DNA from: an uncultured bacterium
GTDB taxonomy: Bacteria; Chloroflexota; UBA5177; JANWHV01
NCBI GenBank assembly: GCA_963827235.1
Contig: CAWHAE010000011.1
Coordinates: 32,001 to 96,000, forward strand
Direction: 5' to 3'
Length of the DNA: 64,000 bases
Notes under the pieces: generated by a model
Seen by the model: only the letters and a program-made list of their open reading frames with translations
The model's database searches: none
What the model was told of the DNA's origin: nothing
Made by a program: the position numbers and the translations under genes
In this document: positions 35,526 through 47,727 of the stretch, in pieces
Numbering within the stretch: position 1 is the stretch's first letter
How the letters are laid out: each line of letters opens with the position of its first letter

Positions 35526-35831
35526 TTAGTGCGACTCGAAGTCGGCCGAGCGCCGCTCGGTGCGCAGCGGGCCCACCAGGCCCCTGAAACGCTGGTGCAG
35601 AGGATGCACCTCATAGCCCTCGAGCGCCTGCCAGCTGTCGAACTCGGTGTAGAGCACGAGGTCGGCAGCGTCGGCGCCGGGCAGCTGGTTGACGCCCAGC
35701 TCCAGGCGCAGCAGTCCGGGCACGCCCGCGCGCATCGCCTCGGCCTGCTCGCGCATCTGCGCGAGATCGAGCGGTTGGCCGTCGGCCATGGCCGCGGGCT
35801 TGAGCTTCCACATAACGACATGATGGATCAC
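35526..35831 (-). CDS. Dabb family (stress-responsive A/B barrel) protein
   Basis: [45 protein letters not shown] overlap with the CobT-like stop. Confidence 0.85.
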
Positions 35832-37646
35832 GGCCTGGCTCGCGGTCTTGGCGGGGCGCGCCGACGCGCGCCGGGCCGCTCGAACAGCTCGAGCAGCTGG
35901 CCGACGATCGCCTCGCCCAGCGTATCCGAATTGGCGAGCGTCACGGCGCGCCGGTAATAGCGCGTCACGTCGTGACCGATGCCGATGGCCACGAGCTCGA
36001 CCGGCGAGTGCTGCTCGATCGACTCGATCGTGGCCTGCAGATGCCGCTCGAGGTATTGCGGGTCGTTGGCATCGAGCGTCGCGTCGTCGAGCGGCGCGCC
36101 GTCGGAAATCACGATCAGGATGCGACGGCGCTCGGGCCGGCTCATCATGCGCGCGTGCGCCCAGAGCAGCGCCTCGCCATCGACGTTCTCGCGCAGCATG
36201 TTTGAGTCGAGCATCAGGCCGAGGCACTGGCGCGCGCGGCGCCAGGGCTCATCAGCCGACTTGTAGACCACGTGCAGCAGTTCGCTGACCCGGCCGGGGT
36301 TCGCCGGCCGGCCGGCCGCGACCCACTGCGCGCGCGCGCGCCCGCCGCGCCAGCCGCGCGTGGTGAACCCGAGGATCTCGGTCTTCACGCCGCAACGCTC
36401 GAGCACGCGGCCAAGCAGCTCGGCGCACAGTGCCGCGTTGGCGATCGGCACGCCGCGCATCGAGCCGGAATTGTCGATCAGCAGCGTCACCAGCGTGTCG
36501 GGGAATTCGCGCTCCTGCTCGATCTTGTAGGCTGAGCGGCTCGAAGGGATGCGTGACCAGGCGCGTGAGGCGCGCGGCATCGAGCACGCCTTCCTCGAGG
36601 TCGAACTGCCAGTAGCGCGTCTGCAGCGACTGCAGCCTGCGCTGCAGCTTGTGCGCCCAGCGCACCGCACCGTCGAGGCGGTTACCCACCAGGCGATCGA
36701 GCTCCTGGCGCATGCGCTCGAGCGTGGCGGCATCGCGCATCGTCGCGGCGCGCTCGATCGCATCGAACTCGGTCGTGTAGATGCGATAGAGCGGGTAGGC
36801 CTGCGCAGCCTTCCCCCGGTGCCGGCGGCGGCTCGGGCTCGCGCAGCTGCACGCTGGCCAGCGGGTCGCCGGCGTCGGAGGTCTCTTGGATATCGCCACC
36901 GGCCTTCTCGACGCGCTGCGCGCGGTGCTCGGCCGGCGGCACGTCGGCGTCGGGCTCCTGGCTTTGCTGCGGCTGCTCGGATTTCGCGGCGCCTGCGAGG
37001 AAGGCCGCGATCACGCTCAGCGACTGGCGCGCATAGGCCTGCTGGTCGCCGACCAGCTCGCGCAGCCGCTCCACCTCGGCCGGCTCGGCCTCGCGCAGCC
37101 AGCTGCGCCAGCCCTCGCGCAGGCTGGCGCGCGCCTGCTCGGGCAGCGGCGCATCGAGCGCGCCGCGCACCAGCAGCGCGAGCGTCTCGAGCCAGGCGGT
37201 CGGCGAGCTGCGCAACATCGACTCGGGACGCGAGCGCAGCCAGCGCTCGTGCGCCAGGCTGCCGAGGTTCTGCCGGGCGCCCGGGAACTCGCGCCCCGCC
37301 AGCAGCTCGACCCGCACCTGCTCGAGCAGCGAATAGAGCGTGCGCTCGGTGCGCGTCTGGGGCTCGAAGCGCGCGTAGCGGAGCCGGGTCGCTGTAGCGC
37401 TGCCGGAATGCGAGTGAATCGATGCGCCCGCGCCAGCGGCTGAGCGCCTCGGGCTTGGGCTGGCGCGGCAGCTCGGCCAGCACCATCTGCCAGTTGGCGC
37501 GCATTGCGCGCGGCCGGCTCGAGCGCGAGCGCCGCGCCCGGCGGCGTCGCGAGCGCGCGATACACGGCGCCGGTCGCCTCGCCGAGGCGCTGCGCGTCGC
37601 CGGTGCCCGCGCCCGCGCCGTGTTCCGCTACATCCGGACGCATCAT
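35828..37646 (-). CDS. CobT-like vWA-domain protein, several frameshifts
   Basis: [55 protein letters not shown] (MIDAS), [30 protein letters not shown]. Confidence 0.88.
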
Positions 37647-37680
37647 GGCAGCCGCCTGGACGGCCCGCCTGCCGCTCGGC

Positions 37681-38680
37681 TCAGAACTCGACCGGATACG
37701 GCGGGATCTCGCCGGCCTCGTGCATGCGCGGCAGGTCGGGGTTGGCGTTCTCCCAGACCAGCAGCATCGAGCGCTTGCGCGAATAGCCCTGGTGGCGAAT
37801 GTCGGCCGGCATCGCGGCCACGTCGCCGGCCTTCATGCGCACCTTGGCGCGCGGGGCGCCGGTCTCGCGGTCCTCGATTTCCCAGTCGATCTCGTCGCTG
37901 AACTGCAGGAACCATTCGACGCGATCGTTGCCATGCTTGATCGGCAGGATGTATTCCTCGGTGGTCGGGCAGAAGAGGCTGCGACCGCATACCGAGGTCA
38001 CCGACGGGTTCCACGTCACGTCCGAGCGCGACAGGTAGGCGAACAGGCTGAAGGCGTGGATCTTGCCCTCGAAGCCGGGTTCGGCCTCGATCACCGGCTC
38101 ATTCTGCGGCACGTCGGCGAAGGCGCGATTCACGGGGTAGCCGTTCTTGTCGCTGCGCAGGCCGGCGTCGCCCGGGATGCCCGGCATGCGCTTGCACACC
38201 TCGCGCTCGCGCTCGATGGCCGCCTTGTTCTCGCCGTTCTTCGGGCCGATCCAGGCCTGGCCGGTTTCTTGCGGGGCAGCGAACGGGTCGAAGCCCTGGC
38301 TGGTCCAGTCGTCGAGGATCGCCTTGAACGTGGCCATGATGATTGGCGTGTCGAAGGTCTCGAGGATGTCGAGGCCCTTGTCATGGTATGCGGGGTGGAA
38401 GCGGCCGGCATACATCTCGACGCGCCCATAGAGGTTGCGCGTGCCGAACACCGCGTCGAAGTTGACCCAGCCGTAGAAGAAGCCCCAGGCGACGTCGCGC
38501 ATCATCGCGCGCAGGAAAGCGTCGGCCGAAATGATGTGCGTCATCTTCTGGCCCTTGGCCTCCCACTCGACGCGCACGAAATACTCGTCACGGCTGAAAG
38601 TGAAACCGCCCAGCTGGAAGCTGCGGTAACCGGTCAGGTTACTGCCCGGAGTGGCTCGTACTGCGATTCTGCGTGCTCAT
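37681..38680 (-). CDS. Hydroquinone 1,2-dioxygenase large subunit, copy 1 (5' frameshift)
   Basis: DAFLRAMMRDVAWGFFYGWVNFD, SLFCPTTEEYILPIKHGNDRVEWF, PADIRHQGY, as in HapD/PnpD/HqdB. Confidence 0.92.
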
Positions 38681-38737
38681 TGGATACATCCTCCTAATGC
38701 TGTGTCTGGTTGCGTCTGCGGGAAGGGAGCGCGCCCG

Positions 38738-46057: not shown

Positions 46058-46116
46058 GTGGGAGCGGAAGTCGACCCGGACTGGTGCCAGTGCGCTTAAG
46101 GGTAGCCTGCTCCCGC

Positions 46117-47127
46117 TCAGAACTCGACCGGGTAGGGCTTCAGCTTGCCCGACTCGTACATCTCGGGCAGGCCCGGGGAGGCGTTCTCCCAGACGAGCAG
46201 CATCGAGCGCTTCTTCGAGTAGCCCTGGTGGCGGATGTCGGCCGGCATGGCCGCCACGTCGCCGGGCTTCATCTTCACCTTGGCGCGCGGCGCGCCGGTG
46301 TGCTTGTCCTCGATCTCCCACTCGATCTCGTCGGAGAGCTGCACGAACCATTCGACGCGATCGTTGCCGTGCTTGATCGGCAGGATGTATTCCTCGGTGG
46401 TCGGGCAGAAGAGGCTGCGGCCACAGACCGAGGAGACCGAGGGGTTCCACGTCACGTCGGAGCGCGACAGGTAGGCGAACAGGTTGATCGCATGCACCTC
46501 GCCCTCGAAGCCGGGCTCGGCCTTGATGACGGGAGCATCCTGCGCGACGTCGGCGAACGCGCGGTTAACCGGGTAGCCGTTGGCATCGCTGCGCAGCTCG
46601 GCGTCGCCCGGGAGGCCCGGCATGCGCTTGCAAGCCTGGCGCTCACGCTCAATCGCGACGATGTTGCTGCCGTTCTTGTGGCCCACCCACGCGGTGCCGG
46701 TTTCTTCAGGCGAGGCGAAGGGATCGAAGCCGGCGTTGGTCCAGTCGGCCATGATGGCCTTGAAGGTCGCCATGACCAGCGGCGTGTCGAAGGTCTCGAC
46801 CCTGTCGAGGCCCTTGTCCTTGTAAGAGGGATGATAGGTGCCGCAGTACACCTCGACCCGGCCGTAGAGGTTGCGCGTGCCGACCACGGCGTCGAAGTTG
46901 ACCCAGCCGTAGAAGAAGCCCCAGGCGACGTCGCGCATCATGGCGCGCAGGAAAGCGTCGGCGGAGACGATGTGGGTGAGTTGCTGGCCCTTGGCCTCCC
47001 ACTTGACGCGTACGAAATACTCGTCGCGCGAGAAGTTGAAGCCGCCGAGCGTGAAGCTGCGGTAACCAGTCTGGTTGCTGGCCGGCGAAGCCTGGACCGC
47101 TGGCTCCTGGACCGTCTGAGTGCTCAT
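46117..47127 (-). CDS. Hydroquinone 1,2-dioxygenase large subunit, copy 2
   Basis: Intact 336 aa; same signature blocks as copy 1, including HGNDRVE and DIRHQG. Confidence 0.93.
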   Translation of the reverse strand: MSTQTVQEPAVQASPASNQTGYRSFTLGGFNFSRDEYFVRVKWEAKGQQLTHIVSADAFLRAMMRDVAWGFFYGWVNFDAVVGTRNLYGRVEVYCGTYHPSYKDKGLDRVETFDTPLVMATFKAIMADWTNAGFDPFASPEETGTAWVGHKNGSNIVAIERERQACKRMPGLPGDAELRSDANGYPVNRAFADVAQDAPVIKAEPGFEGEVHAINLFAYLSRSDVTWNPSVSSVCGRSLFCPTTEEYILPIKHGNDRVEWFVQLSDEIEWEIEDKHTGAPRAKVKMKPGDVAAMPADIRHQGYSKKRSMLLVWENASPGLPEMYESGKLKPYPVEF

Positions 47128-47217
47128 GGCTATGCCCTCAATACTTTGAATGAGTCGCGAAGAAAAATGTGCAGCAGATTCAAGCGCTGGTGCCGCGAAC
47201 GCGAATCACCTGCATTT

Positions 47218-47727
47218 TCACTTGTAGCATATCTCGGCCCATTTCTGCACCGAGAGATCGCCCATGATCGTCTGCATCATGATGACGCCGGGCTTGCTCG
47301 GGCTGCGGAAGCGGTAGGCGGCGCCTTTAGGCAGCAGCACTTGGTGGCCGCGGCCAGCCTGCACCACGCCCATCTTCTTGCCCTGCGGTTCGCCCTTCAC
47401 GAGCACGGCACCCTTCTTGTCGGGGGCCACGACGCTGTCGGGGGCATCGAGCTTGACCAGATCGACCTCGACGCAGCCATCCATGACGAGCGCGAATTCG
47501 TCATGCGCGGCCGCGTACCAGGGCGAGTTGCCCTCGGCGCGCAGCGTCTCGATCACGTATTCGAGGTTGATCGCGACCACGACTTTCTCGTACGGCTTCG
47601 ATTTGGCCGCCACGTCGAACATGTTCGAGAAGGCGTAGTGCATCGGCTTGTCGTTGACGATCTCGAGATCGCCTTTCGCGTAATCGGCCAGAGAGCCGAA
47701 CACCGTCGTGTATTGCTGCTTGCTCAT
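47218..47727 (-). CDS. Hydroquinone 1,2-dioxygenase small subunit, copy 2
   Basis: MSKQQYTTVFGSLADYAKG...KWAEICYK; paralog of 38738-39244. Confidence 0.93.
   Translation of the reverse strand: MSKQQYTTVFGSLADYAKGDLEIVNDKPMHYAFSNMFDVAAKSKPYEKVVVAINLEYVIETLRAEGNSPWYAAAHDEFALVMDGCVEVDLVKLDAPDSVVAPDKKGAVLVKGEPQGKKMGVVQAGRGHQVLLPKGAAYRFRSPSKPGVIMMQTIMGDLSVQKWAEICYK

Follow-up and report, generated by a model that had tools for sequence, protein, structure and literature searches.

CobS and CobT are textbook vitamin-B12 proteins. We know of no assigned function for the orphan CobST pair of Alphaproteobacteria, and a literature search for a functional role of CobS/CobT without CobN returned only B12 reviews and surveys. 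A structural preprint describes how CobT grips its effector between its N-domain and the face of its metal ion-dependent adhesion site (MIDAS), with its shaft in the CobS ring, and how the N-domain contacts CobN in the holoenzyme (bioRxiv 10.64898/2026.07.21.739949). Its authors liken the CobSTN assembly to NorQ-NorD-NorB, with a shared motor-adaptor-effector logic. Here we analysed a 64,000-nt stretch of DNA (the window, in whose numbering coordinates are given) on contig C11 of genome assembly G000, in which genes of the CobS and CobT type stand among genes for hydroquinone catabolism.

The genes here make up a hydroquinone-to-beta-ketoadipate catabolic cluster, on a compositionally atypical, plasmid-like contig, together with an accessory module of Rieske, CobS, CobT and Dabb genes. 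Its novelty is a putative AAA+/von Willebrand factor A (vWA) maturation or repair pair in a new, non-CobN context; the protein family itself is already known. The gene context suggests a new client for CobS/CobT. We tentatively favour, with somewhat less than even confidence, a reading in which the CobST motor-adaptor would serve a metalloenzyme of the pathway, likeliest the Fe(II) hydroquinone dioxygenase, in metal loading or repair. The initial annotation of this DNA, made from the sequence alone, knew of no description of such a linkage, and we likewise found no literature joining a hydroquinone dioxygenase and CobS.

Arrangement of the hydroquinone cluster

Every gene from 48680 down to 32583 is on the minus strand. 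The dioxygenase, module, dehydrogenase and reductase genes are listed here with percentage identities; L numbers denote the homologous loci compared, and P0001 and P0002 are database CobS proteins.

47218..47727, minus strand: hydroquinone 1,2-dioxygenase small subunit, copy 2 (74% to the L102 small subunit over its full length, frame unbroken; 71% to copy 1)
46117..47127, minus strand: hydroquinone 1,2-dioxygenase large subunit, copy 2, PnpD/HapD type (PF18191, 4.1e-69; 77-82% to the L102 and L018 orthologues)
45688..46100, start approximate, minus strand: small Rieske [2Fe-2S] protein (PF00355 at 45688-45999, CxH...CxxH; one frameshift, matches in two frames)
44704..45688, minus strand: CobS-type AAA+ ATPase (TIGR01650 in two frames, hidden Markov model (HMM) positions 7-52 and 51-325; 93% to the intact 327-aa P0002)
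38738..39244, minus strand: hydroquinone 1,2-dioxygenase small subunit, copy 1 (64-70% to the L101 and L102 small subunits)
37681..38676, minus strand: hydroquinone 1,2-dioxygenase large subunit, copy 1 (PF18191 HMM 6-150 in the whole-genome search; PnpD_N at 37681-38577, 2e-55; 72-75% to L101 and L102, single frame)
35828..37646, minus strand: CobT-type vWA/MIDAS adaptor (TIGR01651 in three frames; CobT_C at 35828-37504, 7.6e-82; four frameshifts)
35526..35831, minus strand: Dabb (stress-responsive alpha/beta barrel) protein (PF07876, 2.9e-18; translationally coupled to CobT)
33674..35230, start approximate, minus strand: aldehyde dehydrogenase of the 4-hydroxymuconic semialdehyde dehydrogenase type (PF00171, 1.2e-175; 83% to L018; 69-76% to plasmid-borne hydroquinone-operon dehydrogenases)
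32583..33645, minus strand: maleylacetate reductase, Fe-ADH family, one frameshift (PF25137, PF00465; 75% to L018 in two frames; 59-70% to annotated maleylacetate reductases)

The two-subunit hydroquinone dioxygenase was recognised by two PF18191 matches, each with an adjacent small subunit, and by the accompanying semialdehyde dehydrogenase and maleylacetate reductase. Its alignment has invariant His and Glu columns. Copies 1 and 2 are only 81% identical in the large subunit and 71% in the small, which rules out a recent duplication or an assembly repeat, and the two pairs are best read as old, diverged paralogues.

The junctions reported in the initial annotation could be read directly. The Rieske TGA (45690-45688) overlaps the CobS ATG (45688-45686) as TGATG, the CobT ATG (37646) follows the TGA of large subunit 1 (37683-37681) after 34 nt, where 35 bp had been given, and the CobT TGA (35830-35828) overlaps the Dabb GTG (35831-35829) as GTGA. 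An open reading frame (ORF) at 35432-35821 was rejected as the Dabb gene, being in the wrong frame and having no family match. Within CobS, 44704-45648 matches AAA_5/CbbQ_C in Pfam, and five tblastn pieces of the window CobT cover residues 12-588 of L018 CobT. Gene content and coordinates were as first described, but the CobS, CobT, Rieske and reductase frames are broken in the assembly. The accessory module is split here, with Rieske-CobS behind pair 2 and CobT-Dabb behind pair 1; in intact relatives it forms one tightly overlapping unit. In a wetland metatranscriptome library, X15, contigs were found over parts of CobT, of the Rieske/CobS junction and of the reductase, thiolase and DUF6644 genes, a weak hint that CobT and the Rieske/CobS junction are transcribed.

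Conservation of the neighbourhood

In a careful CobS tree of 60 rows, 13 hydroquinone-type rows (the window, L018, L020, L101, L103-L108 and L110, plus L019 and L109) fell on one side of a branch with support 99/97, and six such rows fell on one side in a CobT tree of 51 rows (support 99). L018, L020 and L101 are genome loci, and L103-L108 and L110 are metagenome loci. Branches in this clade are longer. The 60-row CobS tree also set apart a second CobST clade (L098, L099, L100 and L128; support 100/99). A quick CobS tree of 165 rows, in which support for the whole hydroquinone clade was unclear after re-rooting, was replaced by the 60-row tree.

In 11 of the 13 clade loci Rieske immediately precedes CobS. 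The exceptions are L019, which has an aldehyde dehydrogenase there and no Rieske, and L109, for which the upstream flank is missing. Nine of the eleven also contain the dioxygenase or its semialdehyde dehydrogenase: the dioxygenase pair is directly upstream of Rieske in five (the window, L018, L103, L105 and L110) and the semialdehyde dehydrogenase in four (L020, L101, L106 and L108). The Rieske-CobS adjacency is kept through rearrangements, down to ~66-75% CobS identity. As in MoxR/vWA systems, the motor and adaptor genes lie together, CobS and CobT overlapping behind dioxygenase-Rieske or dehydrogenase-Rieske in L018, L101, L020, L103 and L110. Dabb follows CobT in the window, L018, L103 and L110, and start/stop overlaps join CobS, CobT and Dabb in L018. 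The linkage noted in the initial annotation is no isolated case. In addition, 14 close CobS relatives come from records whose longest contig is identical in length to that of records with dioxygenase subunits, which suggests, without proving it, that the two lie on the same contigs and that many more linked contigs exist.

Co-occurrence was examined in 151 genomes from the order of the L018 genome. CobS and the dioxygenase were each found in five, with both in four, CobS only in one, the dioxygenase only in one and neither in 145 (Fisher's test, 1.2e-6; the genomes are few and related, and so not independent). All four genomes whose dioxygenase operon includes Rieske have CobST, and the sole dioxygenase locus without Rieske nearby belongs to the genome without CobS. 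In two of the four co-occurring genomes CobST is from the second clade and on another contig, the dioxygenase operon having a Rieske gene in both. A class-level survey found the dioxygenase in 4 of 400 genomes, with one more unscored.

Reading frames and origin of the contig

G000 comprises 8.0 Mb in megabase contigs and is 95.9% complete with 9% contamination. Alignment to intact orthologues placed seven frameshifts in the cluster: one in CobS (near 45515-45521, one base more than in P0002, which is 93% identical), four in CobT (near 37500, 37390, 36900 and 36520), one in Rieske (~45930-46000, with the true Rieske start near 46100) and one in maleylacetate reductase (near 33515). Six-frame profile searches split CobS across two frames and CobT across three. 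No shift was found in ~5.7 kb of dioxygenase, dehydrogenase and thiolase genes. This uneven distribution is what speaks for CobS, CobT and Rieske being decaying pseudogenes in G000 with real frameshifts, a reading that we regard as very unlikely. The rpoB gene of the same assembly (C14:446429-449745) is spread over at least three frames with at least four frame changes, and the orthologues of the affected genes are intact in other assemblies. Short-read contigs of near-identical strains (peat and soil runs; ~96-98% identity) aligned with 4 gaps over 36396-37595 and one gap each over 45386-45738, 45659-46000 and 33443-33772, and with none over pieces within unbroken window genes. Because rpoB is equally broken and each predicted shift is matched by one short-read gap, we read the frameshifts as almost certainly assembly errors. 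Protein-level work used intact orthologues in place of the frameshifted window copies. Single-base indels are frequent in the G000 assembly, so that an ORF-based reading needs frameshift-tolerant methods, and several window genes appear N-terminally truncated.

The origin of the contig was considered separately. The core rpoB of G000 is 99% identical to that of a same-genus genome and 65-69% identical to those of the Steroidobacteraceae genomes that hold the closest cluster relatives; genes on C11 resemble Steroidobacteraceae, and the core rpoB does not. A close CobS was found in none of 40 relatives of G000 searched, where the best match had 33% identity. C11 is a tetranucleotide outlier and carries a ParA-like ATPase and MazE/PIN toxin-antitoxin genes at 60531-62519, and the contaminated bin is oversized (8.0 Mb, compared to 4.4-5.4 Mb across its genus). 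For these reasons, C11 is either a plasmid or island, or mis-binned. Since its origin is uncertain, the absence of CobN from G000, described below, is to be read with caution. The setting inferred for the host is soil or peat, and nearly identical sequence is found among peat, soil and rhizosphere runs from several studies.

Family membership and the absence of CobN

Profile and identity scores place the window CobS and CobT in the genuine canonical CobS/CobT family rather than in a new one. CobS shares 67-77% identity with 80 genome loci, most of them from Alphaproteobacteria, with ~70% identity to alphaproteobacterial CobS, and the pair scored 493 bits (CobS) and 442 bits (CobT) against the solved chains. 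Both were under the NCBIfam equivalog cut-offs, CobS with 480 bits (TIGR01650, cut-off 558.55) and CobT with 372 bits (TIGR01651, cut-off 759.05). The same was true of other clade members: CobS scored 540.6 in L110, 534.7 in L018, 543.7 in L101, and 534.4 and 543.2 in two other genomes, G041 and G121, and CobT, each time in two stretches, 507.9 in L110, 532.0 in L018 and 591.4 in L101. The second-clade CobS of L099 passed the cut-off with 605.6 bits, and the housekeeping alphaproteobacterial CobT of L032 reached 901.2 bits. The initial annotation had asked for a phylogeny of the pair against CobN-associated CobST. The pair does belong to the canonical family, and within it does form a separate, sub-cut-off clade.

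The motor and MIDAS motifs look intact. The CobS_N plus AAA_5 architecture (PF12556 and PF07728) was found in L018, L101 and L099, and L110 CobS has the Walker A motif GFHGTGKS. Positions conserved in alphaproteobacterial CobS are kept at 173 of 191 in the hydroquinone clade, and conserved vWA positions at 110 of 147, with the MIDAS present. The C-terminal vWA domain matched PF11775 at 1e-81 to 1e-88, and the MIDAS motifs DNSGSM, GFTT and SDG are conserved in all six aligned hydroquinone-clade CobT proteins. The CobT N-domain matched Pfam CobT weakly, at 102-138 bits in the hydroquinone clade compared to 203 in the second clade. Whole-genome profile searches found no second CobS or CobT copy in G000. 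In the 517-aa P0001, also a CobS, the C-terminal two-thirds recur as a less identical tandem copy, which may reflect a chimeric assembly of two strains or a true duplication.

No CobN was found across the whole 8.0-Mb G000 assembly with TIGR02257 or PF02514, and none in the five other genomes that carry close relatives of the pair, all of these assemblies being incomplete metagenome-assembled genomes (MAGs). A Pfam pass over the window surfaced no other cobalamin gene either, in agreement with the initial annotation; its sole 'CbiA' match is a ParA-type P-loop protein and was discarded. The bit scores to the solved chains and the alphaproteobacterial identity given above would suit ordinary cobaltochelatase subunits with CobN encoded elsewhere and an incidental operon position. 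We consider this highly improbable, given the missing CobN (with absence unproven in incomplete MAGs), the sub-cut-off scores of both proteins and the conserved operon position. The initial annotation had treated the lack of CobN as notable. CobN was indeed not found, but this is the commoner state and not unusual for G000 and the five carriers: among 50 genomes with close CobS relatives, 32 gave no CobN-family match and 18 gave one. Orphan CobST without CobN is a common state of the family.

Alphaproteobacterial cobS-cobT sit in a housekeeping neighbourhood. cobT follows cobS in 71 of 80 genome loci; in 105 of 165 loci cobS is preceded by a J-domain gene, and the flanks repeatedly contain BolA, L28 (rpmB), aroK/aroB, xerD and accA (L021-L097 and L111-L182). 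Along with the frequency of CobN-less genomes, this setting raises the alternative that the window pair has the same general, CobN-independent role as in most Alphaproteobacteria and merely rides on mobile catabolic islands with no hydroquinone-specific tie. The rarity of CobS in the order surveyed (5/151), its absence in close form from the relatives of G000 and the outlier contig with its ParA and MazE/PIN genes would also fit. What makes such a role unlikely is the Rieske adjacency, which outlasts rearrangement and sequence divergence, the translational coupling of the module genes, the long-branched clade with its sub-threshold scores and diverged CobT N-domain, and the genome-level co-occurrence of CobS with the dioxygenase.

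The Rieske gene in classical operons

Classical hydroquinone operons end in an orthologous small Rieske gene (35-47% identity, shared motif), and the window Rieske is 35-57% identical to those of L018, L101 and the Pseudomonas, Caballeronia and Sphingobium hydroquinone operons. Three plasmid loci were examined out of 23 plasmid matches (Sphingobium cloacae pSCLO_6, Pseudomonas sp. JS425 pPNP1 and Caballeronia sp. NK8), and 3/3 have Rieske and no CobST within 9 kb. Rieske is present in five of nine dioxygenase loci without adjacent CobST. Because classical operons carry Rieske without CobST, we read Rieske as an ancestral accessory of the pathway, with CobS-CobT(-Dabb) added behind it in one lineage. 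We found no literature description of the hydroquinone-operon Rieske gene; the DLL-E4 paper names X1 and X2 without 'ferredoxin' wording.

Candidate clients and mechanism

In our favoured reading, a CobS hexamer would drive the CobT adaptor, as in CobNST and NorQD, and a metalloenzyme of the pathway would take the place of CobN as client at the vWA/MIDAS face. The likeliest such client would be the oxygen- and substrate-labile Fe(II) hydroquinone dioxygenase. The dioxygenase would be opened, oxidised iron or an inhibitor released and Fe(II) reloaded, with the Rieske protein as the source of the electron for the step from Fe(III) to Fe(II). Such a module would serve for optional maintenance, with no requirement for it in activity as such. 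Work on the purified Sphingomonas dioxygenase found that activity is lost in oxygen and partly comes back with Fe(II) plus ascorbate, that H2O2 kills the enzyme, and that inactivation by its own substrate is irreversible (PMC3222310).

Several observations weigh against the dioxygenase as client. All support for it is gene context as we read it, and if the frameshifts were real the window copies of these genes would be dead. The window CobS and CobT are ~7 kb apart, each behind one dioxygenase pair, and the plasmid operons described above do without CobST. PnpC1C2 was active when made in E. coli without CobST (PMC4871426). In L104 and L107 the place upstream of Rieske is taken by a divergent trio of cytochrome c, PPIase and HupE-like genes, with no dioxygenase there. 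An aldehyde dehydrogenase neighbours CobST just as constantly as the dioxygenase does: this dehydrogenase is directly upstream of CobS in L019, L098, L099 and L128 and, in the window, directly after Dabb. The second CobST clade has a one-carbon/betaine setting with no dioxygenase alongside, the order in L099:6608-12430 being Aldedh-CobS-CobT-GFA-ADH, with neighbouring genes for an MttB-type methyltransferase, a DAO-GCV_T protein (dimethylglycine/sarcosine dehydrogenase-like), a formate dehydrogenase-like protein and FTHFS.

The last two points would suit a rival reading in which CobST does serve the pathway, through another client: either the aldehyde dehydrogenase, to clear dead-end adducts of semialdehyde or formaldehyde, or Rieske itself, for cluster or metal delivery. 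The dehydrogenase-Rieske-CobS order of L020, L101, L106 and L108 and the CobT-Dabb-dehydrogenase order of the window agree with the former, and the Rieske-CobS adjacency of 11/13 clade loci, whatever sits further upstream, with the latter. To our knowledge, NAD-dependent aldehyde dehydrogenases need no metal cofactor, and we know of no AAA+ helper for them. Rieske is no universal client, as L019 and the second clade are without it, and the co-occurrence at genome level is with the dioxygenase/Rieske operon. We therefore hold a client of this kind to be fairly unlikely, if a serious contender. The dedicated metal-loading or repair machine of the initial annotation is plausible and keeps the support of the conserved linkage, the lack of a CobN match, the intact MIDAS and Walker A motifs and the co-occurrence; its dedication to the dioxygenase is what the Rieske genes in operons without CobST, the activity in E. 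coli, the equally constant aldehyde dehydrogenase and L104/L107 call into question.

A broader version of the favoured dioxygenase-client reading, which we regard as rather doubtful, would make CobS/CobT general CobN-independent metalloenzyme (re)activases and the hydroquinone clade the first ATP-driven 'dioxygenase activase'. CobT would dock on an inactivated cupin dioxygenase, CobS would pull it open, and Rieske, possibly with Dabb, would restore Fe(II). If true, this would point to the job of orphan CobST in most Alphaproteobacteria. A clade placed in a defined catabolic operon, beside a labile Fe(II) enzyme and a Rieske protein, offers a small expressible system for testing a non-CobN client. 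Should the client be the dioxygenase, ring-cleavage oxygenases would join the enzymes maintained by AAA+/vWA machines, and the conserved, unstudied Rieske gene of pnp/hap/hqd operons would be explained. It could also help to stabilise the hydroquinone-pathway enzymes used against nitrophenol, alkylphenol and paracetamol.

Neighbouring genes

The remaining features of the cluster and its flank are as follows.

48108..48680, minus strand: TetR-family regulator at the head of the cluster (PF00440, 2.3e-07; in L105, too, a TetR homologue stands before the small subunit)
43219..44436, minus strand: 3-oxoadipyl-CoA thiolase, PcaF (TIGR02430, 630 bits, above the cut-off of 597)
41623..43031, minus strand: two CoA-transferase subunits, 3-oxoadipate CoA-transferase-like (PF01144, 1.9e-42 and 4.8e-11; 80-83% to L019)
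39241..41433, minus strand: DUF6152, DUF6644 and two unassigned ORFs, 39868-40380 and 39241-39774 (PF19649, 4e-21; PF20349, 2e-4)
29567..32579, plus strand: di-haem cytochrome c, peptidyl-prolyl isomerase (PPIase; Rotamase_2/SurA-like) and HupE/UreJ_2 membrane protein, a possible associated trio (Pfam)

The upstream CoA-transferase subunit appears N-terminally truncated. DUF6152, DUF6644 and one or two small ORFs adjoin hydroquinone genes in three loci (window 39241-41433, L102:1015-2711 and L019:9292-10227). The cytochrome c/PPIase/HupE-like trio occurs once in G000 and accompanies the cluster in three loci (window 29567-32579, L104:876-4013 and L107:1-1339); HupE/UreJ is a family that we take to be Ni/Co permeases. 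A gene of the tannase/feruloyl-esterase family lies beside the hydroquinone cluster in L018 (4775-6460, minus strand) and L101 (531-2177), and an esterase-like gene follows Dabb in L103. From these esterase genes, the natural substrate may be a hydroquinone ester or a phenolic ester. A second block resembling aromatic catabolism, at 10545-24953, may provide an upstream route to hydroquinone. Its genes encode a FAD monooxygenase of the phenol-hydroxylase type (23436-24953), a luciferase-like monooxygenase, a P450, an FNR-like reductase, a thiamine pyrophosphate (TPP) enzyme, an amidohydrolase_2, a further aldehyde dehydrogenase and an IclR regulator.

Comparison with known systems

XylT is a plant-type ferredoxin. 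XylT-type ferredoxins share with the window protein the placing of a small [2Fe-2S] protein inside a ring-cleavage operon and a proposed Fe(III)-to-Fe(II) reduction. The likeness drawn to them in the initial annotation does not extend to the protein, which is not of the plant-type fold and has a Rieske domain (PF00355, CxH...CxxH) whose nearest solved relative is T4moC, a weak match (E = 0.002). Reactivation of catechol 2,3-dioxygenase by XylT-type ferredoxins is cited, via Tropel 2002, in PMC3222310.

The classical hydroquinone operons (pnpC1C2DECX1X2, hqd and hap), from known degraders, resemble the window in both dioxygenase subunits (56-67% identical), the dehydrogenase, the maleylacetate reductase and the terminal Rieske. 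They differ in having no CobS/CobT within 9 kb and in having an intradiol dioxygenase (with YciI in JS425) that the window lacks.

NorQ/NorD, which inserts FeB into nitric oxide reductase, likewise combines a MoxR-class AAA+ protein and a vWA protein beside the metalloenzyme that they mature, and is the model for non-haem iron insertion (PMC9976466, PMC13036017). NorQ is distant, chains of the CbbQ/NorQ type matching CobS at 1e-8 to 1e-9, and it acts on a membrane enzyme of the haem-copper type, where the client here would be a soluble cupin. The CbbQ/CbbO Rubisco activase is alike as a motor-adaptor that repairs an inhibited, already assembled enzyme, as the preprint summarises (bioRxiv 10.64898/2026.07.21.739949). 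It is of a different subfamily and has a different client, and no metal is exchanged.

The orphan CobS/CobT of Alphaproteobacteria are close in sequence (~70% CobS identity) and, as a rule, are also without a CobN match (18/50 have one), but they stand in a housekeeping setting and not in a catabolic operon. CobNST itself (solved as 9ujv and 9uka; bioRxiv 10.64898/2026.07.21.739949 and 10.64898/2026.10.09.757910) has the same CobS_N plus AAA_5 motor and the same CobT N-domain, shaft and vWA/MIDAS; in the intact relatives of the window cobS and cobT overlap. The window pair differs from it in that no CobN was found in G000 or the other carriers, in its separate clade and sub-cut-off scores, and in its place behind a Rieske gene in an aromatic catabolic operon.

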